A DNA stretch of 62,599 bases, the filler included, from Kipferlia bialata (lineage: Eukaryota), in assembly GCA_003568945.1 (NCBI GenBank). It is 5 parts of 5 records of this genome, joined end to end, with 100 filler letters (N's around TTAATTAATTAA, not from the genome) between each part and the next. Parts side by side here need not be neighbours in the genome. Positions count along the whole stretch, not along the records: positions 13,886 to 27,667 come from BDIP01000898.1; 4 more parts are not named here. One strand, 5' to 3'. Both the position numbers and the translations under genes were made by a program. Below the pieces are notes generated by a model. The model was not told the DNA's origin. It searched no databases and was given only the letters and a program-made list of their open reading frames with translations. Below, in pieces: positions 5,991-59,088 of this stretch. How positions within the stretch are numbered: the first letter of the stretch is position 1; each line of letters begins with the position of its first letter.

Positions 5991-8900
5991 CTACACCTTC
6001 TTGGCCCTACATGCTGGGCATATACTGCTGTTGGACACACCCCCTGTTTCGAAGCACGCCTCGTGGATTAAGTGCTTGCAGCTGCGGCACCGGACAGTGG
6101 CGTCTGAGAATGCAAACATGTATGGTGGCTGCTGGCATACTCTACAGAGCTGACCCAGCATGGGGCATCTACTGCACGACTGGACGTGTCCTAGCAGTGC
6201 CTTGAGGAGGGAGCCCACCGTGGTGGAGAAGTCCCCCCTGAGCACTGCCTCTATGTCACCCTGGGCCCACATGCGGCACGTGCCCTTGTCGGGTAGGGTG
6301 AGGTGCTCCCCTAGGCCGTGGGAGAGAGTGGCCTGTCTCAGCAGGGCCCTGCCCCCATGATGCATGCACCCATTGAGCACAGGCTGCACCCTGGCCAGCT
6401 GGTGCCGCAGACGCCTCCCCTCTGCAAAGCCATTGTGCCTGAGTAGGGTAGATGGCATGGCCTGTTCGGGGATGGAGGGCAGGGGGCGGTAGGCAGAGAC
6501 GTAGTCATAGGCCGCAGTGCACACTGGCTTTGGGGTGGCATCAAGCAGAGATACCATGCGGGCAGGGAGGGAGAGGGAGAGGGAGCCTGGGGGGTGAGTA
6601 TCTATCCATATCACCAATAGTGTGCGTATTCTGTCCACACTTATCCGTACATATATATATAAGGATGTCTCAATACCTGACATGCACTGTCTGCAGTACA
6701 GCCTTTAGATACCCATGTATATCCATCCATCCATCTATATCTATATCTATATATATATATATATAGATACCTGACATGCACTGTCTGCAGTACAGCCTAT
6801 AGATACCCATACATATACATCTATTCATACATATATATATATCTATATGTCTCAATACCTGACATGCACTGTCTGCAGTACAGCCTATAGATACCCATGC
6901 ACATCCATACATCTATCTATATCTATATCTATATATATAAGGATGCCTCTATACCTGACATGCACTGTCTGCAGTACAGCCTTTAGATACCCATGCACAT
7001 CCACCCATCTATCTATATCTATATCTATATATACAAGCATGCCTCTATACCTGACATGCACTGCCTGCAGTACAGCCTGCCCGTGTACCAGCAGAAGAGG
7101 GGCTTATCTCTGGTCACAGTCATGGACACCCGGCACCAGGGGCACAGGTTGCCCTACAAGTCAGTGTATGCACAAGTTCACGTATTTAATGTAGAATATT
7201 ACAGCATGCCCATACCTGTGCTGCTAGTGCTATGCCCCTGCCCTCGAGGTCCCCTGGCTCCTCATGCACCATAAGGGACAGAGGGGAGGTGACACCCCGA
7301 GACACAGGGGGGCGGAACAGGGCTGGGGGTGAGAATACCAGTATATATTTGTTGCATAGTATAGTATATACATATATGTATACATGTGTGTGTGTGTCAT
7401 ACCTATCCTGGGGTCTGGCACCAAGGGTGTCTGTGCAGGTGGGACAGGGACCGGCTTGGTGTCCCTAGGGGGCTGGAGCAGGATGGCCTCGCTGTCTGTG
7501 AAGTATCTGAAGGCAGCAGGGGGGAAGGTGGTCCCGTCCTCCTCATACTGTACATCCACTGTCCACCCATCCAGGGCACCCTCCGCCATGCTCTGCTCAG
7601 ACTCTCTCTCTCTCTCTCTCTCCCTCTCCCTGTCTCTGTCTGCACTTCCGTCGTGCCCCAGCTGTCTCAGCCTCTCCTGGTGTCTGCTAAGGGCCTCTCT
7701 CTCCACCTCCTCGGCCAGGGACAGGTGGCTGGGGGCCACACTGAAGTAGTTGAGCACGACCTGGGCCTGGGACACCTGGATGGTAAGGATCATGAGCATC
7801 ACTGTAGATATATATGGTACAATGGCTGGGGCGTGCTATTAATACACATACCTTAGTGTAGAGTATGGGGTGGGGCCCTACTAGTGGGTGGAATGGGTGG
7901 GCCTGGGGGGTGGGCAGAGGCACCCTGTCCTGGGCAGCCTCTCTCTTGCTCTCTCTCCTCTCCTTCCCCTTCTCCCCCCCTCTCCTACCCAGCTGTCTAA
8001 CTGGCACCCCAGTCACACTGTGCCTCACACTGTCCAGGAACGACATGATATCCACGTTCCTGTCCCTCACGCTGTCCTCCCCACTGCCCCTGTCCCCGTC
8101 ACTCATGGAGCTATCACCGCTTAGGGACATGTGCCTTCCTAGGGTGCTGTCCCTCCCTAGGCCACCCTCACCCTCACTGTCACTCTGCACATACAGGATG
8201 TCTCTACCGGGGGCAGCGTAGGAGGCCTGGCTGCTGCTCATATGGCGCCTATTGTGAGTACTATCAGTATATACACAAAGGATGTACACGTCTATATAGT
8301 ATACATAACATACCTGTGAGAGTACTCGTCGTGCCTCCTCCCGCCCTGCCTGGGACTGCCGTGCCAGAGAGAGACATGGGCATGGGGGGAGAGGGGGGGT
8401 CTCTCAGGCGAGGGGCTGTCTCTACCTGGGTATGGGAATCCCTCTCCATCGGAGTCCTCTCCCTCTATCTCTCTCTCCTCTCTCTCCCTGTCGCTGAAGG
8501 AGTCTCCGTCCGACAGCACCCTCTCCACGCCTAGCACACCCTCTCTCTCTCCATCCTCATCCCCATCCAGGTCATCTAGGCCTAGGGCACCGTCTCTCTC
8601 CCCCTCTACACCCTGTCTGTGGTGGTGTCTGCTATAGGGCTGCAGACCTCCGTTGGGGTGGTGGGACCCTAGGATGTGGGCAGGGATCAGGGAGGAACCC
8701 TCACTCTCGTCGTCCCCCTCCCTCTCCCTCTCCTCAGCATCCACCATGTCACCACTACCCCCTGCCATGAGTGCAGCCCCCACTGCTGAGGGGCTGAGGG
8801 TGGATGACTGTCTAGCTAGTAGGTTCTGCCACTGGTGGGTCGAGGACTCAGACCCCTCTGACAGGTCAGTGTCTGAGTGGGACGCAGAGTGCGACAGGTA

Positions 8901-11900
8901 CCGGTCACTCCCATCCTCCTCACTCTCCATGGCATCAGCTAGACCGGCTAGGAGGTCGTTGGTCTGCGCCTGGCACCTGGGGTAGGTATAGGGAATCTGA
9001 GAACACCAGAAATATCCGTAAAGTAGTAAGTAAGTACGCAGCATCTACGAGAATATATGCATATAGTAGTGGTGATACCTATAGTGCGACACGTAGTGTG
9101 GCTCGTAGGCCATGACTGGGTTGACAGGGGGTGCCGAGCTGATGACATGGCCTAGACCCAGGGAGCTATCGGGGGTGGCAGACACTGGGGGTGAGGGTAT
9201 ATACAGGGCACACTACGGAATGTGTAATATGACTACGTCTATATATACACTATACCTCCCGGTAGACTGGCCGATGCCAAGAGTGTCTCTGCCAGTGTGT
9301 CTGTCTCCGCTGTCACTCCATCCAGGTCACCCAGGTCACCAAGGGACTCCAGAGACAGCTCAGAGAGAGAGCACACGTCAGACCCCTCGTGTGCTGTAGA
9401 CTCCTCCTCTGCCTCTCCCTCTCCCTCATACTCCTGATGCTCAGACACACCATGCTCTGTGTCTATGACACCCTCTCCAAAGTCGGCACCCATGGGAACG
9501 GACCCGGCCTTGGGGGTCTGGGGGTGAGGGGATGGTGCACATATGTTAACGAGTGTATATAAACGAAGGGTATGTACCTTAGTCTTGCCCCAGAAGAACG
9601 GGAGCTGTGCGAGGGATATTGATGAGAGAGACCCCATGAGGGAGGGTGAGGATGGGGAGGGAGAGGAGGGGCCAGGGTGGGGCCGAGGGGGTGTCTGTGC
9701 CTGCTGAGCCCTGGCCACTGCCATTGATACTGTCTCCCCCTCGGCCTCACTCTCGTCTGTCTCCTCAGACGACGACAGCACTGTCTCTGCCTCACCCACC
9801 GCTGCAGGCGCAGACACAGGCAGGGTGTCCCACTCACGGGCATCCACCCCTAGCTGCCTGGGGTCTAGGTCCAGTCCTGTTCCCTGACCCCTGCTAGGTA
9901 CCTTAGATACCTTAGACACCTTACTGACACTGGGTCTGACTGGGGATGTCTTACCCTTGCCCCGTGTGTGCTGGGGGGACGGGTACACAGCAGAGGTGGT
10001 GAGCCTTGTCTGTTCAGGCTGTGCCTTGAGGCCTGGGACAGACTTGGACATTGTGCCAGTGCTAGTGACACTAGAGGCACCTACCACCTCCCCCTCCACT
10101 TCCCCCTCACTCTCCTCACTCTCACTCTCTGTCCCGTCCAGTCTGTGTCTGAGGGTGGATACACTGGGTACAGTCCCCTCCTCATACACAGTCATGGGTC
10201 TGAGTCCACCGGCCATGTTCACTTCAGTGAGTCTCTCAGCACAGCCCATCACCCTGGGGTTGGGACAGATACACACATACATAGATACATACAATACATG
10301 TTATACTCGCTCACAAATACGATAGGAGTCGAGACACAGAGGAAGACGGATAACTGATAGCTAAACCTGTACCATACTCACTATACTATGAACTATACAC
10401 TATACTGTACCTGTGGTAGAGAGGCATCTCCCTGATGATGCTACCGGGTGAGAAGTGTGTGTTGACCACGTCGTTGTTACAGGGCATGTGCAGACAGGAG
10501 AAGAGCCGCAATAGCATTTTGTCCCTCAGACACATCCTGAGGGGTGAGACAGATAATGAGAGAGAGAGAGACTCCCATTCTTCCTGAAGAGAAGGGGGGA
10601 GGAGGGGGGGGGGTACTGTCCCACTATAGACTAGTGAAGCCAATGGAAAGTGACCTCATTGTACCAATATACAAGGCAACCCACCTCATGAGGACTGAGA
10701 CCTGTCTGTTGTCGATGGTGCTCTGCTTCACAATCTTCAGGTGCTGCTGCAGCTTGGCGTCACCCCTGACATGGTGAGATGGGGTACTCTCTCTCTCTCC
10801 CCATGTGTCTCGGTCTATCTATACTATATCTATACGTACCTGACTGCCGAGACACACTTTGTCAGACACGGCAACTCTCTCTCTGCCTATCTATACCTAT
10901 CTATATATATATGCCTGCCTATCTATCTATCTGGCTATCTATACATGTATGATATGACTGTACCTGACTGCCGACACACTTTGTCAGACACGGCATCTCT
11001 CACATACTATATATATATATATATCTACNNNNNNNNNNNNNNNNNNNNNNNNNNNNNNNNNNNNNNNNNNNNNNNNNNNNNNNNNNNNNNNNNNNNNNNN
11101 NNNNNNNNNNNNNNNNNNNNNNNNNNNNNNNNNNNNNNNNNNNNNNNNNNNNNNNNNNNNNNNNNNNNNNNNNNNNNNNNNNNNNNNNNNNNNNNNNNNN
11201 NNNNNNNNNNNNNNNNNNNNNNNNNNNNNNNNNNNNNNNNNNNNNNNNNNNNNNNNNNNNNNNNNNNNNNNNNNNNNNNNNNNNNNNNNNNNNNNNNNNN
11301 NNNNNNNNNNNNNNNNNNNNNNNNNNNNNNNNNNNNNNNNNNNNNNNNNNNNNNNNNNNNNNNNNNNNNNNNNNNNNNNNNNNNNNNNNNNNNNNNNNNN
11401 NNNNNNNNNNNNNNNNNNNNNNNNNNNNNNNNNNNNNNNNNNNNNNNNNNNNNNNNNNNNNNNNNNNNNNNNNNNNNNNNNNNNNNNNNNNNNNNNNNNN
11501 NNNNNNNNNNNNNNNNNNNNNNNNNNNNNNNNNNNNNNNNNNNNNNNNNNNNNNNNNNNNNNNNNNNNNNNNNNNNNNNNNNNNNNNNNNNNNNNNNNNN
11601 NNNNNNNNNNNNNNNNNNNNNNNNNNNNNNNNNNNNNNNNNNNNNNNNNNNNNNNNNNNNNNNNNNNNNNNNNNNNNNNNNNNNNNNNNNNNNNNNNNNN
11701 NNNNNNNNNNNNNNNNNNNNNNNNNNNNNNNNNNNNNNNNNNNNNNNNNNNNNNNNNNNNNNNNNNNNNNNNNNNNNNNNNNNNNNNNNNNNNNNNNNNN
11801 NNNNNNNNNNNNNNNNNNNNNNNNNNNNNNNNNNNNNNNNNNNNNNNNNNNNNNNNNNNNNNNNNNNNNNNNNNNNNNNNNNNNNNNNNNNNNNNNNNNN

Positions 11901-12502
11901 NNNNNNNNNNNNNNNNNNNNNNNNNNNNNNNNNNNNNNNNNNNNNNNNNNTAGTTGTATACATACTGTACCTGACTGCCGACACACACTTTGTCAGACAC
12001 GGCATGACCTGCCACTTCTTGTTCTTCTTCCAGCCCAGGGTGAAGGCACACCCATGGTGCAGCACCTCCCCTAGACACTGCACGAGACACGCTACCTGAC
12101 ATATCAGCATCAGACACATCGGTGTTCACATATACTATTATAGTACTGCACTACAATATACACTATACATACCTCCAGCCCCCCTCTCTCCTTGGCGTCT
12201 CCATACCCCTCTGGGGGCACATTGGCCTCTATGTAGCTGACTGCAGTGTCAAGGTCTGACAGGAGCTGCAACGCCCGCGCCGATGGCACTGAGGTAAGGG
12301 ACAGATGGGTGGACGAACAGTGTACACTGATCATACAAACACACTGCAAAGAGGTTGGTGCCCTAACAAAGTCCAGACTCACGCAAGAATGTCACATACT
12401 ACATCACATGTACTCTGTGAAGGGCGTATTGAGAGAGGAGTAGGGAGTAGTAGGGTGCAAGACACAATTGGAGGACTACCACGTACCAGGCCCGCTGGCC
12501 AT
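5991..12502 (-). CDS. RUN-domain + Rubicon-homology (zf-RING_9) protein, Rubicon/PLEKHM1/DEF8 family; multi-exon, spans a sequence gap
   Basis: C-terminus has CPWC..LFCWYTGRLYCRQC..LPARMV..HVQSCSRC..GQLCRVC..VRCRSCKHLIHEACF..CPAC (RH domain). N-terminal exons LLSDLDTAV / CLVQCLGEVLHHG / RMCLRDKMLLRLF..HFSPGSIIRE resemble a RUN domain. First exon MASGP (ATG at 12502) splices in frame. Confidence 0.75.
6674..7080 (-). repeat. About 94-bp tandem repeat: 5 copies of exon 3' end (GGCTGTACTGCAGRCAGTGCATGTCAG) + GT donor + TA-rich spacer
   Basis: tacctgacatgcactg starts at 6674, 6768, 6856, 6952 and 7048; the last is the true exon. Confidence 0.9.
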
Positions 12503-18350: not shown

Positions 18351-18556
18351 GAGGCATGCGTATATACATGAAGGAGAGGAGCACTGGGGATGAGTGGGCA
18401 GTATCATTGGCTGTGACACTCCCTTGAGATATGCCTGAGGTGGAGAAGGAATAGACAGGGAAATACACGGAGGGGATACTAGGCCTAGTAAATGGAAGTG
18501 ACAGGAGAGTTACACATCTCCAGACTAACTCTCCACTTGGATTGATAGTTCTATTG

Positions 18557-18621
18557 TCAATCTCGCTCATGCGGGTGCCTCCGTATAGGATTGGGCATCA
18601 CGCAGTCAATGCGAGAATCGA
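18557..18621 (-). promoter_or_regulatory. Putative type II SECIS element in the 3' UTR of the SelW-like gene
   Basis: RNA UCGAUUCUCGC-AU-UGAC-UGCGUGAUGCC-C-AA-UCC-UAUAC-GGA-GGCACCCGCA-UGAG-CGAGAUUGA folds by hand into helix I, UGAN/NGAN core, about 11-nt helix II, unpaired AA and a UCC/GGA mini-stem. Confidence 0.75.
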
Positions 18622-18709
18622 GCACTCTTCTGGGTATAGAGGTGGTGCAACCCCATACAGTCCATTCATTCACACCACTAGGCAGCATATGCTATGCTAT
18701 ATGCTATGC

Positions 18710-19156
18710 TTACAGGGCACGGATGAGGTCAATGTACACCTGGGGGGAGGGGCAGGAGCCAAGCTTGGGCTTGCCGTAGAGGAGGGTCCTCTCGCCATCC
18801 TCGGCCGTCTGGTACACGTTGAATGTCTTGAACTGGGGGTGAGAGGCACGTCTATATATGTATATATATGCACACAGGTGGTCAGAGGCAGGGTATGAGA
18901 AGAAAGACCCAATGAAAATAGAGATGCGACAGCTATGCCTTAAAATGAACAAGCAGCTACCTTGATGTGGGAAGGGTTTCCGACCACCTCGATTCCTGGG
19001 AACTCTCTGAGGGTGAGGGGACATGGTCAGAAGGGGTCAAAAGAGATATCATAAAGAATCTTGGTAGACAGTGCCCCACCTCTCCAGAGCCTGCTTAGCC
19101 TCGTGGAACCGAGGTGTGTAACGTCATGTGATGCAGTAGTCTATCTCAATCTTCAT
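18710..19156 (-). CDS. SELENOW: SelW/Rdx-family selenoprotein, 81 aa, CxxU motif (in-frame TGA at 19126-19124)
   Basis: Exons 19156-19080, 19006-18961 and 18832-18710 (all GT-AG) give MKIEIDYCITURYTPRFHEAKQALEREFPGIEVVGNPSHIKFKTFNVYQTAEDGERTLLYGKPKLGSCPSPQVYIDLIRAL; matches the SelW pattern I.YC..U.Y..(R/K)..L..EFP. Confidence 0.88.
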
Positions 19157-19570
19157 TTCTAGGGACTCAGGGATAGACTGAGTTGAAGAGAGCAGGTTCA
19201 TTCAAATCCACTTTAAAGAGACCAGATCTCTCAGAATTGATTGTCCGTTAGAACATCAAACGGATAATCGATTCACAAGTGGGCATCCAATTCTTGTGCA
19301 CGACAGTACTGATATGTCCAAACCTAACCGGTGTATGCTGTATTTGATCGAAGTCAACATCCGTGTAGCCAATTCAAACAAGGTCCATAATGGACCGTCC
19401 ATTGTTTTAAGCGTGACAAGAGCTTGACAAGCTTTCACTATTGGTGAAAATTTGAATTCTCAAAGTCGACGCGACTATGAAGAGCCACGTGGAACCCGCC
19501 CACGTCTTATTCACCAGTCATAGTGTCTCTTGGTGAGTAGTAGAGCTTGTCACGACGCATATATTTGCAG

Positions 19571-19827
19571 TTTGGGGATGGGTCAGCTGGAATCTTGCTT
19601 TTGTGGAGGGCTGGAGCTTAGTGGCGTGCTGCTGCTGCTGCTGCAAGAAGAAGAAGCGGCCAGTGTCGCAGTCCCAGGTGAACCTCAAGGGCGGTGCTGT
19701 GCCACCTGAGGGTCTCAACCCAATGGCCACGGCAGCACCTGGGATGGTGACCCCTGTGGTGGGTCCTGTAGGGGCTATGCAGTATGCACAGGTGCCCCTG
19801 CAGTACCCATCTGGGCCTGCTCCATAA
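19571..19827 (+). CDS. Short exon encoding a hydrophobic segment + CCCCCKKKKR + Pro-rich tail; start not found (small membrane protein or gene remnant)
   Basis: WGWVSWNLAFVEGWSLVACCCCCKKKKRPV...; preceded by a putative intron at about 19533-19570. Confidence 0.35.
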
Positions 19828-20163: not shown

Positions 20164-22562
20164 CTAGCCCTTTGCATCTCCTGTCCCTGAGTCCACAGGG
20201 TCTAGGGGATTGACCTGACCTAGTGGTAGAGGTATGGGCTCAGTGATACATGGGGGCAGGGCCTTGGACCTTAGGAATGAAGGGATGTCTGGGTAGGTGG
20301 TGTGGTCGAAGGAGCCCTGGCGGTGAGATAGGGTATTCACTGAGAGAGACGACTGCCGAACTACCTGACTGAGGAACCTCTCCACCATCCCCCCCACCAT
20401 ACCACTCAGACACATGACGGGGTGGGGGGCAGGGAGCACAACACTGTCTCCCATCCCATGGACAGCGGTGCGGCCCACACCCACCTTGCCGTCATTGGGA
20501 CCTGGGGTCAGATGGGGTATACATGTATGTACAGCTCTTGATAAACATCAATAGTACATTGTGACACATATATGAGGAGATACCCACCTGGTATCAAGAG
20601 GGACAGGAGCCAGTTAATTGTCCAGTTTCCAGCTATGACACCGCAGTCAAAGGACACAGGGGGGAGGGAGTTGGGGACGGAGTCAGAGCCAGTGCCTGTG
20701 GGGTGAGAGGCAGAATTACTCAGAAGACTGGAAGGCCTTGCTTCTATACTCTCTTGGACTTGACCCACCTAGGCTACCCCCTGCTTCCCCGTTCATCCAC
20801 TGGAACAGCCACCAACTGCCCAGTGCATCAACCACCTCACTGCCTATGGGTGAGGGTATAGGTAGGGTAGTAGACGTTATAGCATGTATTTCAATATGAA
20901 TACAGGCTAGATGTACCTTGGTTAGGTGGCCCCAGCATGCAGACTCTCCCAATGGGTGGCATGGGTGTGGCATCACTAGTGGCAGAGGGTACACTGACTG
21001 ATACACAGGAGGGATCAGCTGTAGATGAACAGGTTGCCGAGTCGTTCTCTCTCTCCTCCTCCACCCCTGCACTACACACCGAGTCACTCACTACTGTATC
21101 ACTCAGTATGTCGGTGATGGTGGCAGAGTGGGGAGAGACATTGTGTATCTCTGCCTCTATTAATACCCCCCTCTCTCCCTCAGCCGGTCTGTCCTCCCGT
21201 ACATCGTACGGGTGGAGGTGCGCTAGGTAGTAGCGGGTCTGGGGTGAGGAAGAGGAACAGTATTTATATCACAAGAATTGTACCTGCACGTCAATGATAT
21301 ATACACCTCTACGCACCAGTATGCCCCCCATGCTGTGTGTCACAAAGTGGATCTTGGTGGCACCTGAGTGTGAGGGATAAGAGAGAGAGATGAAGGAAAG
21401 GAATGACACCGGGAACATATAGATCTATAGACTATACACGGCTACGGTTATGTAATGTAGAAGGCATGTATAATTGTGTCCACAGTCAAAGTGCAGTCAT
21501 AGAGTATCCAGTCTGTACCTGCCTCTCTGCACATCTGGACAGCACACATCAATCACACATACAAAGTATAGCATGTACTAGAGAATGCCTGTATCGTTGT
21601 GGCCATTAGATCTGGTGTGTATGTTCAGTACCTGCCTCTCTGCACATCTGGACAGCAGGGGCTAGGTACTCGGCAGTTAGAGTGCTGGGTGTAAGTACTT
21701 TCACTTATGTATAGGCCTAGTAATATTGTAATGAAACTTTGAGTAGTATATGATGCATCTATCCCCCCACCTTATGTCCTTCTGGGTGGACGGGTAGTCC
21801 ACCAGCACTGTGCTGTAGCCCTTGTCCCTCAGTCTCCTGGCCAGTCTGGTCATGGATCGACTGGACCTGATGAGACCATGGACCAGAATGACATACTCAT
21901 CGCCAACTGGGAGGATGAGAGAGAGAGAGAGAGAGAGAGATGACATACTCATCGCCAACTGGGTAAGAGAGATGGGGGGGGGGGAGAGAGAGAGAGAGAG
22001 AGGGAGAGAGAGACGATAGGACTCATCACCAACTGGGTCAGAGAGGGGAGATGGGGAGAGAGGGAGAGAGAGAGGGAGATGGGGGGTGGAGACGATAGGA
22101 CTCAGCACCAACTGTGTCAGGGGAGAGAGAGAGAGAGAGATCTTAAGGAGATGAGTGTCAGAACAGTAGGAAAGAAACTGCGTGGAGTGGGAGGTGGGAG
22201 AGAGAGAGAGAGAGAGGTAAGCCACTGGGAGTATAGTATAGTACAGAACGAGAGAATACTATTGAGGGGAATACCTTGCTGTATATGAGCCCCCTCCCTG
22301 CCCCTCCTCCCCTTAAGCTGGGCACCAAGAGTGACCCCTGCCACGGCTAGGGCACTTCGCACAGACAGAACAGGCATCTTGCCTGGGTTGGAGGGTATAA
22401 CACTACAACACAAACACATATGTCTATGATACATAGAGAGAGTCAAAGTGATGCTTGGAGAGAGGAACTATGCTTACATGCATTACCTCTTCCCACCACA
22501 AGCAGAGCGGTGAGTAGCAGGGTGCCCCCCAGCACTACCAGCCATTGCTCAGCATACACCAT
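20164..22562 (-). CDS. Alpha/beta-fold hydrolase (lipase/esterase, bacterial type) with N-terminal signal/anchor
   Basis: VILVHGLIRSSRSM..GYSTVLVDYPS..IHFVTHSMGGILVR..MLGPPNQGSEVVD..GVIAG..LIPGPNDGKVGV..PHP; first exon MVYAEQWLVVLGGTLLLTALLVVGR splices in frame. Confidence 0.85.
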
Positions 22563-39500: not shown

Positions 39501-41415
39501 CAATACCAACCAACATCTCACACCCTACATATAACCCACCTGCCCCAATGACGCTGTACAGTGCTGCATTCCCAAGGTTGAGGGCCTCGCCCACTGCACG
39601 GCCTGGGGGTGGGGAGGATGGGATATATGGATAGGTGCAATATAGTTAGAAGGATCCAACCACTAAGAATCTTCGTGACACTGTGTACCCGTACCTAGCA
39701 CCGACCCCAGCACAAACATGGGAGTGAAGAACCCTACTGTGATAGGGAGACACAGGGCCAGGAGGTGCATGACTGCATAGGCAGCAGAGAGGAGGAGGAG
39801 GTCTCTGACCCTTTCCCACGACCCCTCCCCCCCCTCCGTGATGCCTGACCCCGACCCGTCCAGACTGCCACTGAACAGACCCTGCACCAGCAGGTTGGAC
39901 GGGAGGCGCAGACCGGGTATGCCGAAGGAGATGGCCGTGGTGAGCAGGGCAACCACTACCACAGCCAGAGTGCGCCTGGCATAGAGGGTGAGGCGGTTCC
40001 AGTCCCGCCAGGCACTGCTATTATCACAGGGGCAGGGGGATATCCTCATGCGCAGCCTCCTCTCGCATATGAGCCCCCTCAGGAAGGCGTTGACAGGCGG
40101 GTACATCTTGATGTACACCCACCCCAGCAGACCCAGACCCACCCCCAACAGAGCAAAGAGGGGGAGCTCACGGGTGTCGAAGTCGGTGTCACTAGGGGGT
40201 GAGAGGGGGTGAGAGAGAGATTGGGAATATATATAGACATATTCCCGTACCCGAGGTCCGAGTCTGCCCCTGTGCCTGTCCCAAACATGTGGGCCAGGGT
40301 TGTCATATCTAGCTGGGACACAACGATCATGGCAAAGGAGCCGCACCACACTATGTTGAGCAGGGCTGCTATCCCACCCCCGTGTCTAGATACCTCCACG
40401 CTGAACAGAGTGCCGCCAAACACAGCCCCAAAGGTCTGGGGTCAGGGGGATAATTGTACATCCGTTGTTATGTACGAGAGGAGTATGGTGAGTGTACACT
40501 CATACAGATACATATATATGTCTTGCGTACCGACACCACCCCAGCTGCCACTGCGGCACTGAGACTAGAGGCACCACTCTTGTGCCGGAAGTGTCTGCGG
40601 AAGGGCCTAGGGGTGAGAGGTATAACACTCACACTATACATATATATATAGCCGTATAGTTGTCTGTATGAGTAGACCCCACCTCAGCAGTGCCAGCTGG
40701 GCAGTCAGGGCCACAGCCATGTACACATAGGGCCCCTCCTTCCCCACCACCAGGCCACTGCCCATGGCCCACACTAGAGAGAGGGCCTTGTACACAATGG
40801 ACCGGTACGAGAAGAAGGAGGCGGCGGTGCCTGGAGGGTAGGGGGGATGTGAAGTAGGAATAGGGTCAGTGACATTTGACAAGACTATGCAGAGGGGTGT
40901 GTATACATACATATGCAAATACACCCACCTGATGTTGGCACCCCCATGTCAAACAGCGTGATGAGCTCAGGTATGCCACTGCCCCCACTCATCTGGTGCA
41001 CGCGGCCCTTGACTGACAGGGTCAGAGGGGGAGAGAGAGAGAGAGAGGGGGGGGGGGACTGTTATGGGAGTACTCGTTCAACACCCCGCAATGCATACCT
41101 CTCATGGTGCAAGTCCAGGTAGTACTGAAGAGTATCGCCTGGAGTGGGATAGGAGTGTATAGGTGTGTGTATACAATATTGCCATCAATGACTATTATAA
41201 ATGCAATATATCTACCCAGAATTGTTACGACTCAATAAAAATCGAAGCGTAAGCTGTGGAAATTGATACACTCATATATGTTAACACATAATAGTATATA
41301 CATACATATGTATAGTCATATATACATATATAGCCACATAACCATACCCTCTATGAGCTCTGTGATGAATACCACCTGGTCGGGCTCATCAGCATTGACG
41401 AAGTGTCTGATATAC
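36566..41415 (-). CDS. CLC: CLC chloride channel with C-terminal CBS pair; 5'-truncated
   Basis: GSGIPE, GKEGP, FGGTLFSVEVS, GFFTPMFVLG, TQTLSSAVIVIELVG, YEQI; CBS motifs LPVVNDSMQLVGEV and LLGLDNAYIRDSHGRLVG. Confidence 0.92.
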
Positions 41416-45151: not shown

Positions 45152-46319
45152 TGCTGAGGACATGGAGTTCCCAGATGAGGTGGACACACCTTGCGACGTC
45201 CCTGTGCGTGAGAAGTTTGCCGGCTACCGAGGCCTCAACTCCTTCCGCACCTCCCCCTGGATCGGTGCCAAGTACGAGCTGCCCGAGGCCTACTCGGCCC
45301 TGTACCGCATCTCCCACCCTAGGGAGGTCGAGAAGGTGGTGCTGGAGGAGCAGGCCAGGGGCATCGACTGCGCCATGCCAGGCCAGTACGTGGTTGTTGT
45401 GCTGAGGGAGTGCTCCTTCAAGGGCATGGGAGGTGAGGACCAGACTACCAACACCCTCGAGGGCGTCATGGGTCTCTACGCCAACCAGGCCCCCGTCACA
45501 TGCTTCGGCCTGCTGAGGCACGAGACCAAGATGTCCCTCTGCCACTTCAGGGTCAAGCGCCACCCCGTCTTCTCTGCCCCTGTCGATGAGGAGGGCAACC
45601 CTCTCCCAGACACCGAGAACGAGTACCTCATCAAGAGCGGGGACCCCCTCGTCATCCAGTACGGGTTCAGACGTGTGCTGGCCTTCCCCACCATCAGTGA
45701 GCACCTCTCTGATCCCAAGCAGGACAAGGCGAAGATGGTCAGGTTCTTCCACGAGGGCATGAACCTCGTCCTCTCTGCAGTGTGTCCTGTGGCACTCACC
45801 AGGCCCAACGTGCTCATCTTCAAGCCTGTCGACCCCGAGCAGTGTCCCGAGGCCGCAGGAGCACCCCTGAGGCTGGTTGCCACAGGCACGGGCCTCCCCC
45901 CCAACGTGGACAAGCTGATCATCAAGCGTGTTGTGCTGACTGGCTACCCCCTCAAGGTGTCCAAGATCACTGCCTGGGTCAGGTACATGTTCTTCAACAG
46001 GACCGACATCAAGTGGTACAGACCCATAGAGCTGCAGACAAAGTACGGCCGCACCGGCCACATCACACAGCCCGTTGGTCTCCACGGTCTGCTCAAGGCC
46101 AGGTTCGACAAGCCTCTGCACCAGGGCGACACCGTCATGCTGAAGCTGTACAAGAGGACATTCCCAGACGCAGCCTCCACCCTGCCCTTCGGTGTATCTA
46201 CTCTCGAGGCCTGTGGCAACGCCATGACTGCCTACCTCGACAAGGAGGAGGATGCTAGGGAGGAGGAGAGAGCCAGGATCGAGGGACAGGAGAAGGACAT
46301 TGTCGACATGGCAATGTAG
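45152..46319 (+). CDS. TSR1: Pre-rRNA processing protein TSR1, C-terminal exon
   Basis: EFPDEVDTP..REKFAGYRGLNSFRTSPW, FGLLRHETKMS, IIKRVVLTGYP, VRYMFFN, GHITQPVGLHG..KARFD, LYKRTFP. Confidence 0.93.
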
Positions 46320-46774
46320 GAGTGATGGTAATCAGTTATAGCTTTTGTGTTTGTATGTCTATTGTTCGTTGCTTCCTTAAATCTATGACTCCATTTTGAC
46401 TGCGGGTTGTAGTGTAGTTTGTCTTGTGCTCCATAGAACAAGTGTGCGTTGTGGGTTTTATCGGTGTTGCTGATGTGAGTATTAGTCTCATGGACAAAGC
46501 TTGGGTTCGCCTGGCACATACTGTAAAATATTGCATCCTCTCCCTTAGTAGTAAGAACTCTCTGGTAGTGTGACTGTCAGAGCAGAGCTTTCACTGACAC
46601 TGACTCAGTGACTGAGTGACTGATTGAGTCCGGACCCTTATTGCAAAAATCCAGAATTCTCTCGCGCCTTGGTCTGGCTAAAGTACGGCATACACGCCCT
46701 TTCATTGCACTCAAGTGCACTTATAAGACTGAACGAGCGATCCGTGCGTCATACTGCCTGAGTAGACTGTTTCT

Positions 46775-49700
46775 ATGCAGTCTGCGAGATCGGCGCGCAC
46801 GCCTCGAGTACCTGAGGAGGAGGCGCACTCACTACCTGATATAGACCTGATCCCAATATCGACCAATGACCTTCTCCACAGCCTGAGAAGGGATGTAGCA
46901 GAGGAGGTTAAGGTGCTGCAGGGGTACGAAGCAGAGAGGCTCAACCACTACCTGCGGCCGAGTGGGTCCTCCAAGACAGAACTCCAGGCAATACCCAGAC
47001 CGGTGCCTGAAGGTATCCTATGCCTATACACTGTTCATACTAGCGTGAGTGTGTACATATTTTTCATAGTTGGGTTGCCTGTGTTTGTTATCCTCACTGT
47101 ACAAATACCTGTCTCTTTATCATTATCTACTATACTCATCTGTTCTCCCACCCCGTCTCACCTGATAGGGGAGGACCTTATCAGAGCCAACACTGCGTCT
47201 CTGAAGCGCTTTGGAGATGTCCCTAGGCCCGCCCTCCCCCTTGTGTGGGGAGACCTGCTCACCCAGCAGAACCTGAGTGCCGCCACTCCTCTTGTGTCTG
47301 TCCCTGCTGACCTGGTGGGTGTGCTATGGGACTATGGGATGAGGGCGGCTAGAGAGGCCTTCCACATGTGGAGGCTGTGTCTGCTGCGGTACAACAGGTG
47401 CCACACCAAGGACGTGATGGCCAGTTCCCAGGCCATACTGGAGAGGATGCTGGTGACCCATGAACAGGGGTGGCAGAGCAAGAGAGAGCTGCTGGCCCGG
47501 CTCAAGGCAGTGGCCAAGGAGGGCAACATCAAGCTGAGCGAGGCCTACATACCCCTGGCCTCCCTCCCCACCCCCGGCCCAGACTCCCTCCCCCCCGGTC
47601 TTGTGGAGCCTGTGTTTGAGGTGGCCAACTCGAGTGATGCCTTTGTGACTGTGGATGACTGCCTAGGGGTGGCCAAGACGATGGCTGTGCCTCTGACAGT
47701 GGTAGATGAGACCATGCCCAGGCTGCAGTGGCTGGGGGAGAGCAAGAGGGGCCTCATTCTGCGTCTGGCCGTTGATGCCTCCATGCAGTCTGTGTCTGTG
47801 CCCACTGTGGTGTGTGAGCAGGCTGATGCAGACCGCATGCTGTCGGGTCTGCTGCCTCTGTGTGGGTCAGATGCCTCTAGTGTCAACGCCACAGACAGTG
47901 AGAGTGTTGTCTTGCTGCAGAGGCGGTTCAAGGATGAGGTGTCGCAGGTGATGCAGTCCCTACAGGTGGCACTGACTGGTGAGGTCAACACACAGGCACC
48001 CCTGCTGCTGGTCGAGCCAGCCTCACTGGACGGCACCATCCTGTGCCCCGCCGCCACCCCCCACCCCCCCTCCCCCCAGACGGTCAATGTGGAGGCGTCT
48101 GAGACTAGGGTCAGGGACGGACCAGACACCGTGGCACCCTCCACCAGCCTCCTGACTGGGGGCGGCACTGATCAGGTGTTTGGATCAGTCCAAGCCACAG
48201 TCCGTACCACCCTGGCTGCATCCACCCCTGACGTGGCCCCAGGCCAGTTTGTGCTCAAGCTCCTGAGGCAGATGAGTGGTGAGCATGCAGCCCTAGTCAA
48301 GATGGGTGGCCAGGCATGCCACGTTGCATCCTCCTCCCTCGATGCCCTGTATGAGCTCAGGCATCTGGCCATCCTGCATCTGAGAAGGGAGATACTCTTC
48401 CTATCCAACCAGTGCAGTGCGGTGGTCCAGTCTCTGGCCTCTGACCTCTACTCGGGCCATGCCACGGACATGCCGGCTGTCTTCCTCCCTGCCTTTGACC
48501 CCAAGGCCTTCATCGAGTCCCAGACAGACACGGCCTCCTTCTACACAGTGGACCCCCATGGGCTGGATGTGCTGAGTGCGGCTGGGGAGAGGGTGTTATT
48601 GCAGTCTGCCCTGGATGGTCTGGAGGATATGGACGCCAGACACCTTGTCCTGGCCAGTAGGGTGGTGGCAGCCACGCCCAAGGACTCACCCACCGTGTCC
48701 AGACCTGCCCTGCTGGTGTCTATCCTCAGACTGGAGGTGGCACTGCACAGGGCCAAGAAGTCTCTGCTTCTCGACCTCCAGTGCGGCCTCCTAAACTGTG
48801 TCGATGTGCTGCAGAGCCGGTCTCTGCTGATACTCGCCAGGAGGGTGGCTGCCCTGCAGGTGGAGTTTGGGCCTGACTCCGACCCCCTGCCCTACGCCAC
48901 TGCCAATGTGAGGGCCATAGAGGGGTATGCCAAGACCCTGCACTGCCTGATGACTGCGGCACAGGCCGAGGTGGGGACCGACATCGAGGGACACCCCATG
49001 GACGTGGGTGGAGGTATATCGATGGGCATGACCGACATCAACCCGGCCCTGGCCCAGGCCGCCATGACGCTCTCCACCCTCTTCGATGTCTCTGACGCCG
49101 TGGCACATGCCTTCCCCTCTCTCTCCCCCCAGTGCATAGCGTCAGGGGTGGGCACTGCTGCCCATATGGAGGTGCTGTATGTGACTCAGAGGAGGAGGGA
49201 CGCAGGCCCCCTCTCTGACCTCCCCGCCCCCCTTAGGCTGGCTGGTCAGTTTGGGTACATCTCCCCTGACACCGTGGAGGCCACCTTCGAGGTAGCCCTC
49301 AAGGAGGCACTCGAGAGGGCAGAGGAGGTGGACACTAACTTCAGCACCGACGTCATCAACTCGGAGACAGTTGCCGGGCCCTCTGCCGCCTTCCTCACCC
49401 CTAAGCGTCTGCTGGAGGCCATCCCCTCACCCCCCTCTGGCACCGAGGCCAGGCTGACAGCGTGTGTGGGTGCGTCCTCCCTCAGACAGTGGAGTGGATG
49501 GCCCCAGACAGAGTGGCCCATACCCATGCAGGTGTGCCAGAACATACTGAATGTGGTGTATGCAAAGAGGCGTCTCTGGAGTGCCACCCTCGAGTCTGCA
49601 GTGCTTGGCCAGATATACGGAGCACAGTGTGAGCTGCTGGGCCTCAGTGCCCGTCTTGCCCTGGGTGACATGGAGTGGGAGGCCCTGGAGGGCAGGGCCG

Positions 49701-52700
49701 AGGAGGAGGTGCTCAGGGAGAGCAAGAGAGAGCAGGCAGACATCGGTGTGCAGACTGCCTTTGATAGGTCCAAGGGCGTGTCATTGGAGCCCGAGGCCGT
49801 GTCCTTCTTCGCCCATGCTGTAGATGAGATCACACCCACCGACCTCCAGGGCTTCGTGTCCCTGATATCCCTCAGAAGACAGGTGGACCTGTCTGCCTCA
49901 ACCGTCAGGTCCTTCGGGTTTGACGATGCCTACGATGCCCCCACATACTCTCTGTGTGCCGGGCCAGCCCTTGTACAGAGGGTGGCCCAGGCCCAGCTCA
50001 CCTTCTGCTCCCTCTTGGTAGCCTGTACCCGCCTCAGCCAGCCCGCCCTGGACCAAGTCAGACGTACCCAGCTGACAGCCGAGGCTGAGGTGATACAGTC
50101 GCTGGGGGAGGCCACGCTGATGTCCAGGGCCAGAGACGCCGTGCAGAAGGGTGACACCTTTGTCACCAGGAGGGTGGCACTGGACGACTCTGACCTCCAC
50201 ACGTCGGGTATGAAGGTGGTAACAGAGCAGGACCCCCTCCTAAGACTGGACAGGGTCACCTACCTGGAGGCCCTGTACTCCGTGGTGTGGCAGGACCTGC
50301 TTTACATAGTGCCAGTCGCACAGGCAGGGAGAGAGATGCAGGGCAGCGTCATCAACCCCATGACAGTCAGGTCTGCGGCTAGGAAGAGGCTGTCCCAGCA
50401 CCACAAGAGAAGAGCGGACGCAGTCAGGGACGCCGTGGCTCTGAGTCAGGACGGGACTGACGCAAAGGCGGCCGTCCTCTCTCTCCGCCACGCCATGATC
50501 TCCCCCTACCTCTCCCTCATCTCCAATGCCATCCGGTCCATAGCTGTGTGTGCCCAGATAGCCGGTGTCGCAGCCACCTGTGTCAGCACCCTCAAGAGTG
50601 TCGACACTGGGTCTGTGCCCTACTACGTCAACGAGGCAGATGCCCAGGAGCCCACCTTCGCAGAGGACTGCACCATAGGCTCCTTCTTTGCTATCCCCGA
50701 CCCCCGCTTCTGTGCTGACCTACTCCCTACCAAGGACATCACGCTGCCAGTGCCCACTGCCCTTGTGGCCACTCTCTATGCACTCATCTGCCACTCTGAC
50801 ATACTGTCTGTGCTGGCACTGATGCAGACCCTGGAGGGGGGTGATGTGGGGTCCCAGGTTGAGCTGATAGCCCAGGCCGTGCACACTGTGGTGCAGGAGG
50901 CAGACAAGGAGGAGAGAGCTAGTCAGGCACTCAAGTATCTGGCCAAGCGGCGTGACACCCTAGTCCTATCTGTCCTTCCCTGTCTCCTCACCTGTCTGAG
51001 GCAGAGTGCCCATGCTGAGGCAGAGGCCGAGTACAACCACTGTGCCAGCATTATTGCTAGGTACTGCCGGTCGTTCCAGATCCCCCTGGGTGTCAGCTAC
51101 TACTCCTTTGATGGCATGCACAATGTCAACCTGATAGCACAGTCCATGGGGGACTCAGCAGGGGGGGACCAGGCACCCAAGCTGGAGTGCCCAGCCACGC
51201 CCTCCTTTGCCCTATCCTCCGGCCCCTTCCTGATGTCCCCCACCCTGCCCCTGCCCTCTAGGCCCATGTCTGGCAAGGCAGTGTCCACTCTCTACAAGGC
51301 AGTAGTCGACATGGCAGTCGGTACAGAGAGGGAGGGGGGTGCCAGTGTGGGTGTGCCTACTAGAGGTGCAGGCCATGCACTCAACGTCAGGGGGTCTCTC
51401 CCCCGTGCCCAGCTCCCCAGGTGTGCCCAGGCCGTGGGTGCTGTGGACTGCTACACATCATGGTCCCTGCTCTGCCACCCAGGGTACCTCACCCAGTCCA
51501 GGGTGGTGTCCCAGCTATCAGGGGCCGAGGCAGAGAGTGGGGGAGAGGGCAGCCTGTGGAGAGGTATGGGCCTGGCCGGCACCTCTGACGTGTACTGCCC
51601 CCTGGCCTCTGTTGTGTCTGCCGTCAAGGCCATCCAGAGCCAGTCCCTCAAGCTGGCCATTGTGTCTCAGTCCCTCAGACTAGAGCTGGAGCTGGAGGCA
51701 GAGCTCTCTCTGGTGTCAGAGGACCTCACCCCTTCGCAGAGGGAGACAGAGGCCCTCCGCACCGTGGCCTCTCTTGTGTCCAGCTCCAGGGTGTGCAACC
51801 TGTTCAGCTACATCTCCCTGCACCGCACACACTCCATGTTCAGCCCAGGCACCATGTCATCCTACTCCACGGCAGAGGACGCCTTCAACGACCAGGTGCT
51901 AAGGTCCCTCCTGATCGACATAGCCCAGGAAGGCAAGCACAACACTCCGGAGTCACTGCTGGTGGAGATACAGGCAGACCAGAGAGTGGTGGACACTGCT
52001 GTCTCCAAGTACCTGCGTCACCTGAGGCTGACCTCTGACCAGACCCTGACTATACAGAGGGAGCATGCCCTGCGGGAGAGGGTCGTAGCAGAGGGCCTGC
52101 AACGCATCGAGGCAGAGTGTCTGCGGTGCTTCAAGGCTGCCATCCAAGAACTGAAGGTGGCCATCGAGGACAACAGGACAGAGACCATCCCCACCCAGGA
52201 GCACCCGACCCTTCCCTGGGTCCCATTCTATGCACACACCACGCTCACAAAGTTCAACCTCTCCCGCATCGACGACTCCCACCACGTGCGGTCTCTGCAG
52301 CGAGACCTCCTGGGCAGGGCCGAGACTGTGCACGATAGCAGTGGCACTGTGTACATGATCCCTGCTGACTCACTCGTCAAGGCACTCGACGCACACGCAG
52401 GTGGGTGCCAACGTGTAAATATCAATTTTCAGTGTATATTTATTCAAATATCTCTACCTCATTAGCTCTAACCCCCAGAGAACCTGATTGAGTGGCAGAC
52501 CCAGCTGATGGGCACTGTGCAGAGGAGGGCCACCATGATGGTATCCACCCTGAAGAGAGAGGCAGCGGAGGCACATGCCCTGGCAGATGCTAGGCAGAAG
52601 AGGCTGGAGGCAGTGACAGCAGAGGTCGGACGCAGGGTGGACTCCCTGGCTGCACTGTCAGGGTTCAGTCAGGTAATGATGCATTGGTGTATACAGAGTC

Positions 52701-58569: not shown

Positions 58570-59088
58570 TTAACAATGGTGTCCCGTCACTCTACCCCCC
58601 GATGTGCCTTGTGCATTTGCGTATGTGCTGGCACAGCATGGCCACAGACTCTGCATCCAGGGGGGTGTACCTATGGTGAGTGTACAGCAGACAGTATGCA
58701 AGATTATATATATATATATAGAGAGAGAGAGAGACATAGACATAGTTATGTAGCATACCTGCATGCATCTGAGAACTGGTCCCAGTAACTGCCGCACACA
58801 CATCTGACATAGGGCAGAAGGGCCACCCTCAGATGCACACCCTCACAGACAGAGGAGGGGGGGAGGGTCCAGCCACCTGAGGAGTTAGTAGATAGTTCAA
58901 TGCATAGGCAGCGCATACATGTATAGTATATATATGTGTGTGTAACACCCTCACACACATGGGAGGGGGGGAGGGTCCAACCACCTGAGGAGTTGGTATA
59001 CATGCATACATGCATACCTTGTCTCCATATCTGCATTTACCAAGAGACCTTGGCCTCACTCCTTGTCAATATATACGTATATGCTATA

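Follow-up and report, generated by a model that had tools for sequence, protein, structure and literature searches.

A probable type II SECIS variant with a U before the UGA core behind an unannotated SelW/Rdx gene of Kipferlia bialata

In the relevant passages of PMC2647825, only the UGA/GA tandem is termed invariable in SECIS elements, and helix II usually starts with a G-Y pair. Passages of PMC3753652 give KGAW as the consensus of the 3′ half of the core (the SECISearch patterns require only NGAN) and 51–111 nt as the minimum distance between the UGA codon and the SECIS. The first GA is preceded by AU, rarely by GU, according to excerpts of Mariotti 2016 and Huang 2024. Non-canonical cores are nevertheless known, namely GUGA in green algae (PMC11227280) and, in a footnote of PMC2647825, GGA/GA in the SelT of Toxoplasma and Neospora. 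The core is related to the standard kink-turn, which is composed of a duplex, a 3-nt bulge, and G.A and A.G pairs (PMC4382518).

For Spironucleus, SelW homologues with UGA at the Sec position are described in sections of PMC2874811 and PMC3916229, and Sec machinery has been reported in portions of PMC2874811, PMC3916229, PMC6397501, and PMC1805757; for Monocercomonoides, it has been reported in part of PMC6759080. In the text of PMC2874811 considered here, ERPIN found no canonical SECIS in the data of Spironucleus barkhanus, which left open how fornicates distinguish a Sec UGA from a stop. No described metamonad SECIS was found in the freely accessible literature searched, and no paper in that literature paired SECIS with Kipferlia or Spironucleus with SBP2. 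Among the matches listed, none reported a natural UUGA SECIS element in its title or the start of its abstract. The three supplements of the Kipferlia genome paper do not mention SECIS, and neither “selenoprotein” nor “selenocysteine” came up in the search of its main text.

Here, we analyzed a stretch of Kipferlia bialata DNA of 62,599 nucleotides, filler included (hereafter, the window), and compared one of its hairpins with these systems. We consider this hairpin to be, with a probability of roughly 0.86, a real and likely functional type II SECIS variant belonging to an unannotated SelW/Rdx selenoprotein gene of 81 residues. The element offers a concrete search seed from a free-living relative and indicates which constraint of the search patterns should be relaxed.

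The SelW/Rdx gene and the public gene model

The gene comprises three exons with a total of 81 codons and GT-AG introns (Table 1). Its only Met is codon 1, the Cys of the motif is codon 8, and the UGA is codon 11. Exon 1 alone matches positions 1–24 of the Pfam family PF10262 (Rdx) with 25.8–25.9 bits at a cutoff of 22.6, and the C-terminal 62 residues (the tail of exon 1 with exons 2 and 3) give a weak match to Rdx positions 20–73 (E 0.053). The best NCBIfam match was the SelT/W/H family (CXXU_selWTH), with 23 bits against a cutoff of 34.2, a score that refers only to exon 1 and the unspliced read-through. In the best PDB match, 3dex (SAV_2001), which is itself weak (E 0.39), the UGA is aligned with the second Cys of CxxC; the top structural row of the Atlas was an Rdx cluster, at a TM of 0.46 that lies below the Atlas naming bar. 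The initial annotation had placed the hairpin behind the stop codon of a selenoprotein, and the PF10262 match together with the UGA at the CxxU site bears out a true Sec-type gene at this position. The hairpin thus follows a gene with an in-frame UGA at a Cys-homologous site, and in the spliced model it lies about 310 nt from that UGA, above the minimum of 51–111 nt.

Table 1. Positions of the gene and hairpin features in the window.
Feature	Coordinates	Strand	Basis or remark
SelW/Rdx exon 1	19080..19156	-	ATG 19156; C-I-T-U motif; GT donor; PF10262 match
In-frame UGA, codon 11, second position of CxxU/CxxC	19124..19126	-	Spliced reading frame
SelW/Rdx exon 2	18961..19006	-	Junctions as in public model GIQ83022.1, residues 396-410
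SelW/Rdx exon 3, ends TAA	18710..18832	-	Public model residues 411-450
Type II SECIS-like hairpin, helix I to apex	18557..18621	-	Fold; z -3.39; SECIS descriptor match
Helix I 5′ arm	18611..18621	-	6 contiguous pairs 18616-18611 plus outer extension, one bulged U; pair probabilities
Predicted 3-nt kink-turn bulge A-U-U	18608..18610	-	U18609 = usual A/G site; U18608 = conserved protruding U
5′ G-A of the putative tandem sheared pairs, with C18605 (3b, opposite U18569)	18605..18607	-	Sequence
Helix II 5′ arm, 12 nt	18593..18604	-	First pair U-A = pyrimidine-purine
Unpaired apical AA	18591..18592	-	Exactly 12 nt after quartet; fold
Helix III mini-hairpin, 3 bp and 5-nt loop	18580..18590	-	Probability 0.97-0.99 in 4/5 contexts
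3′ core half UGAG	18566..18569	-	G18566 predicted paired with C18611, closing helix I
Helix I 3′ arm	18557..18565	-	Fold
Upstream alpha/beta-hydrolase gene	20164..22562	-	Last exon reads on 16 codons to own TAG

Protein searches gave no close relative. The word-index search returned no usable SelW relative, either for the unspliced read-through against proteins of 30–80 aa or for residues 388–450 of the public model against proteins of 30–246 aa. The three matches in the representative protein library were the public chimera discussed below and two repetitive proteins, which were discarded; no SelW relative was among them. A metagenome scan of 394 stretches yielded three loci, none of which reads as an Rdx protein, and they were dropped as chance matches. 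No AATAAA was found within 500 nt of the stop codon, and no tRNA genes were found in the window.

The locus is covered by the public gene model KIPB_004267 (GIQ83022.1) of Kipferlia bialata, whose 450 residues can all be placed in the window as 13 exact segments. Residues 1–388 originate from an alpha/beta-hydrolase gene, and residues 389–450 represent the tail of SelW, which the model joins at an AG located past the UGA. KIPB_004267 (22562–18710) therefore appears to be a gene-finder fusion of the hydrolase with the SelW tail that avoids the UGA, and further selenoproteins of Kipferlia may be concealed in fused models in the same way. The public model shares the junctions of exons 2 and 3 with our gene; being itself a prediction, it is not independent transcript evidence. 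Our reading corrects this model, which conceals a selenoprotein within the fusion.

A possible small gene, at 19478–19827 on the plus strand and head-to-head with SelW, also lies within the long “intron” of the public model. Its product would have a hydrophobic stretch, six Cys, four Lys, and a tail rich in Pro, Gly, and Gln; no Pfam match of note was obtained for it. Elsewhere in the window, we observed genes for a TSR1/BMS1 C-terminal domain protein (45300–46316, plus strand), a CLC chloride channel (39666–40385, minus strand), and a Rubicon-homology domain protein (5994–6704, minus strand), as well as an ORF of 1899 codons without a Pfam match (46766–52462). TSR1 homologues, the best of them at 42% identity, pointed only to a divergent eukaryote. 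The region 10001–12000 has an apparent GC content of 0.26, compared with about 0.5 elsewhere, which may reflect the Ns of the assembly (2044 in the window).

Structure of the hairpin and its detection as a SECIS

The hairpin of 65 nt (minus strand, 18621–18557) has a minimum free energy of −23.2 kcal/mol, and none of 200 shuffles was as stable; with flanks included, z was −2.50 and 5 of 200 shuffles were as stable. The reverse strand (z −3.42) is equally stable, so the strand is set by the core and the gene and not by stability. The pairs of helices I, II, and III had probabilities of 0.94–1.0 in four of five sequence contexts (56–331 nt), and the hairpin fold had a probability of only about 0.56 in the fifth context, of 310 nt; the terminal pair U18616-A18561 reached 0.51–0.66. 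The fold check proposed with the initial annotation thus came out in favor of the hairpin as the dominant structure, an overlapping AUGA register being less stable.

All of the parts originally listed for the hairpin are present on the minus strand. Counted from the stop codon TAA (18712–18710), the lower helix, in which 18616–18612 pairs with 18565–18561, starts after 93 nt; helix I continues outward to 18621/18557, and this outer helix starts after 88 nt. The core consists of UGAC (18608–18605) and UGAG (18569–18566), preceded by U18609, a base read from the assembly alone. The tandem UGA/GA (18608–18606 and 18568–18567) is in register with helix II, which is formed by 4 + 4 Watson-Crick pairs flanking a 3x2 internal loop, and sheared G.A pairing in the core is inferred from the SECIS and kink-turn consensus. 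The apical AA follows the quartet at 12 nt, within the 11–13 nt of the pattern (p2=11...13 AA), and the mini-hairpin of helix III makes the element type II. The assignment to type II SECIS geometry is supported.

Two observations concern the flanks of the element. Directly after the stop codon, at 18709–18683 (minus strand), short imperfect repeats of 5 nt form a small hairpin. At 18561–18518 (minus strand), 49 nt downstream, the motifs recur with the same spacing (UUGA, 12 nt, AA and mini-hairpin, 10 nt, GA), and the element and this recurrence are the only two matches of that motif spacing in the window. The overall similarity is modest, since 2027 of 120148 windows scored as well, and the recurrence overlaps helix I of the element; it represents a decayed tandem copy or a coincidence. 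The second UUGA unit, at 18560, was rejected as a working SECIS, its upper stem having only −0.1 kcal/mol.

For the pattern search, the four SECISearch1 patterns (supplement S1 of PMC3753652) were re-implemented at the pattern stage only and applied to the 210 nt from 18709 to 18500. Strict, Default, and Loose missed the core at 18609, and Loose+, which allows NTGAN, detected it. When the first base was freed, Strict and Default matched this core and no other in the 210 nt; their failure is thus due only to the U before the UGA. Loose+ has little specificity: across the window it matched 131 cores, compared with 7 for Loose. The Rfam SECIS check gave no support, no SECIS family being found at E ≤ 10 on either 6001 nt (12 matches) or 241 nt (1 match). 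The expectation that standard patterns may miss the element therefore held for Strict, Default, Loose, and Rfam, but not for Loose+.

The chance frequency of such a structure was estimated with a permissive SECIS descriptor, which accepted any base ahead of the UGA and required an AA at 10–14 nt, a single stem of ≤ −8 kcal/mol, and a helix I of ≥ 5 pairs. In 253,161,288 nt of block-wise dinucleotide shuffles, it gave 2263 matches, or 0.0018 per 200 nt, a figure that is somewhat optimistic because the descriptor was drawn up after the element was known; a stricter cut left 560 matches. In the real window, the descriptor matched twice, at the element and at 48512, with about one match expected by chance. 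The match at 48512 (minus strand) has an AUGA core and lies antisense within the ORF of 1899 codons, and it was rejected as a SECIS on that ground; no selenoprotein is linked to it.

The U before the UGA and the predicted closure of helix I

Around the core, the element departs from the consensus at several positions. The base 5′ of the UGA is U18609 and not a purine; the 3′ core UGAG agrees with the K of KGAW but has a final G where the consensus has A or U; and helix II starts with a U-A pair, whereas the consensus is purine-pyrimidine (usually G-Y). The initial annotation had put the U forward as the non-canonical feature of the core, an emphasis that the experimental data do not favor. As described in part of PMC1874613 (Clery 2007), SBP2 binding prefers A at the position before UGA, with U as second-best, and in the rat GPx SECIS cited there, A-to-U lowered Sec incorporation by 22%, A-to-G by 30%, and A-to-C by 66%. 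UUGA cores also occur in 3 of the 16 Seblastian protist candidate passages listed (SECISearch3 list), all of which are unvalidated predictions. Given the tolerance of A-to-U in the rat element and the fact that Loose+ already allows NTGAN, the U, rare in described natural elements, is probably a functionally mild change, and taken alone, it would matter little. The lineage specificity proposed in the initial annotation is a candidate reading drawn from this single element.

A more unusual feature is the predicted closure of helix I. The initial annotation had described a small asymmetric internal loop and had missed the extra helix I pair C18611-G18566. This pair had a probability of 0.99–1.0 in four of five contexts, and it would reduce the internal loop, in the G.A-paired form, to a bulge of three nucleotides, A18610-U18609-U18608, without unpaired nucleotides on the 3′ side. 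The predicted loop is thus 3+0 nt, and the SECISearch1 patterns are still satisfied through the outer part of helix I. The resulting order of duplex, 3-nt bulge, and G.A followed by A.G pairs is the sequence geometry of a kink-turn, which occurs at only two sites on both strands of the window; the second, at 58831 (minus strand), has no selenoprotein linked to it. Sheared pairs are not represented in the folding program; in its free minimum, the core bases are paired as U-A and U-G, which is 0.8 kcal/mol more stable than the best fold that keeps the G.A bases unpaired. By the 3b=C rule, which was derived on variants of Kt-7 and predicts ion-induced folding (PMC4382518), the C at 3b (a C.U third pair) would predict folding in Mg2+ without protein.

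Taken together, the U before the core, the G after the 3′ GA, the closure of helix I to a 3-nt bulge, and the U-A first pair of helix II are predicted to make the element resemble a standard kink-turn of the Snu13/L7Ae type more than the open-loop SECIS of mammals. In the portions of PMC1874613 considered, SBP2 binds kink-turns with a 3-nt bulge, with a Kd of 500 nM compared with 35 nM for Snu13p on one RNA, and extension of helix II with opening of the bulge raised the affinity for SBP2 4-fold and lowered that for Snu13p 18-fold. The same source describes mammalian SBP2 as binding the closed form less well than the open loop and cites the rat D1 SECIS, in which closing the loop almost abolished incorporation. 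By analogy with these data, the predicted closed loop is the feature most at odds with mammalian SECIS rules, and it is odder than the U. The element could therefore show, as an experiment of nature, to what extent a SECIS may shift toward a plain kink-turn, given that by the mammalian data a closed loop should favor Snu13 over SBP2.

By analogy with eukaryotic Sec decoding, the element is predicted to sit in the 3′ UTR of the spliced mRNA, where the tandem G.A pairs and the protruding U18608 would form a kink-turn. A protein with an L7Ae domain, most probably a divergent form of SBP2, would bind it and would bring eEFSec and Sec-tRNA to codon 11, and translation would then terminate at the UAA. 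A bolder and rather doubtful extension is that fornicates have remodeled their SECIS into a standard kink-turn that is closed and folds by itself, with no constraint on the base before the UGA; its reader would be either an SBP2 that diverged and co-adapted or a housekeeping protein of the L7Ae type (Snu13, eL30). If this were true, the failure to find canonical SECIS elements in Spironucleus would be explained, and metamonad selenoproteomes would be unlocked.

Alternative explanations and comparison with known systems

One alternative is that the SelW gene is decaying, with the UGA acting as a true stop codon and the hairpin being either a drifting former SECIS or an accidental fold. In its favor are the four consensus departures around the core, the failure of the protein searches to find a close homologue, and the one descriptor match expected per window by chance (with the second at 48512). 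We regard this as improbable, since an uninterrupted frame runs through all three exons, separated by GT-AG introns, and spans the Rdx domain, the sole in-frame UGA of the spliced gene is located exactly at the CxxU site with no later Met, and the helices are almost purely Watson-Crick, a pairing that drift would erode; the chance rate, moreover, is about 0.002 per 200 nt. Still less probable is that the working SECIS is an overlapping canonical fold, with A18570-UGA as the 5′ core and GA at 18518, and that the UUGA hairpin competes with it or acts as a switch. That register is matched by the Loose pattern and has an 8-bp helix with an AA 10 nt after the core, but the Loose patterns match often by chance, and over an identical 131 nt, its constrained fold reaches only −26.1 kcal/mol compared with −37.0 kcal/mol, a deficit of 10.9 kcal/mol. 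Its upper part (−8.3 compared with −12.2 kcal/mol) is also weaker, and its apex is an irregular 14-nt bulge.

The textbook Snu13-type geometry of the kink-turn could also be taken to mean that the hairpin has another job, as a small box C/D-like RNA or as an element that binds Snu13 or eL30 and governs mRNA stability, with Sec inserted through something else, for example, a hairpin adjacent to the UGA. A 5-bp hairpin does begin 9 nt after the Sec UGA (19114–19099, minus strand), but its stability does not exceed chance (z −0.15 and −1.59, with folds as good in about 24% of 2000 synonymous recodings), and it was rejected as a recoding hairpin. A plain kink-turn requires neither an apical AA at 12 nt nor a helix III, both of them SECIS features, and no Rfam snoRNA match overlaps the element. 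In box C/D snoRNAs, box C and box D close a terminal kink-turn, and guide regions are present; the box-like stretches found here form no fourth pair, and only about 24 nt lie between them, and a box C/D snoRNA was rejected, also for want of an Rfam match. Such a non-SECIS role is about as improbable as the overlapping fold. The intact frame and helices make a relic gene unlikely, and a SECIS variant serving the SelW/Rdx gene remains the preferred reading.

Compared with eukaryotic type II SECIS elements, as described in the passages of PMC2647825 and PMC3753652 considered here, the Kipferlia element shares the 3′ position behind a Sec-type gene, the UGA/GA tandem, the spacer of 12 nt to the AA, and helices I and III. 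It differs in the U before the UGA, the G after the 3′ GA, the 3′ side of the loop, predicted to lack unpaired nucleotides, the first pair of helix II (U-A and not G-Y), and the lack of an Rfam SECIS match. Like the GUGA and GGA/GA cores, it is a natural protist departure from AUGA in which the tandem G.A pairs are kept; its change, known from sequence alone, is a pyrimidine before an intact UGA.

With Kt-7, U4 snRNA, and box C/D kink-turns (PMC4382518) and, in the portion of PMC1874613 that describes them, the SELEX RNAs Se1–Se7, the element has in common a duplex, a 3-nt bulge whose last base is U, G.A and A.G pairs, and a non-Watson-Crick third pair. Unlike the standard kink-turns and the SBP2 SELEX winners, it is a natural element that combines this geometry with the apical AA and helix III of a SECIS, and its third pair is C.U; position 2 of its bulge is U, whereas the SELEX RNAs had a fixed residue there. 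The gene itself resembles the SelW/Rdx family (PF10262) and the SelW paralogues of Spironucleus, as presented in parts of PMC2874811 and PMC3916229, in its small size, its N-terminal CxxU, and its fornicate host; in comparison with the Spironucleus SelW, the Kipferlia gene has two introns, ends in UAA, and is followed by a recognizable SECIS-like element.
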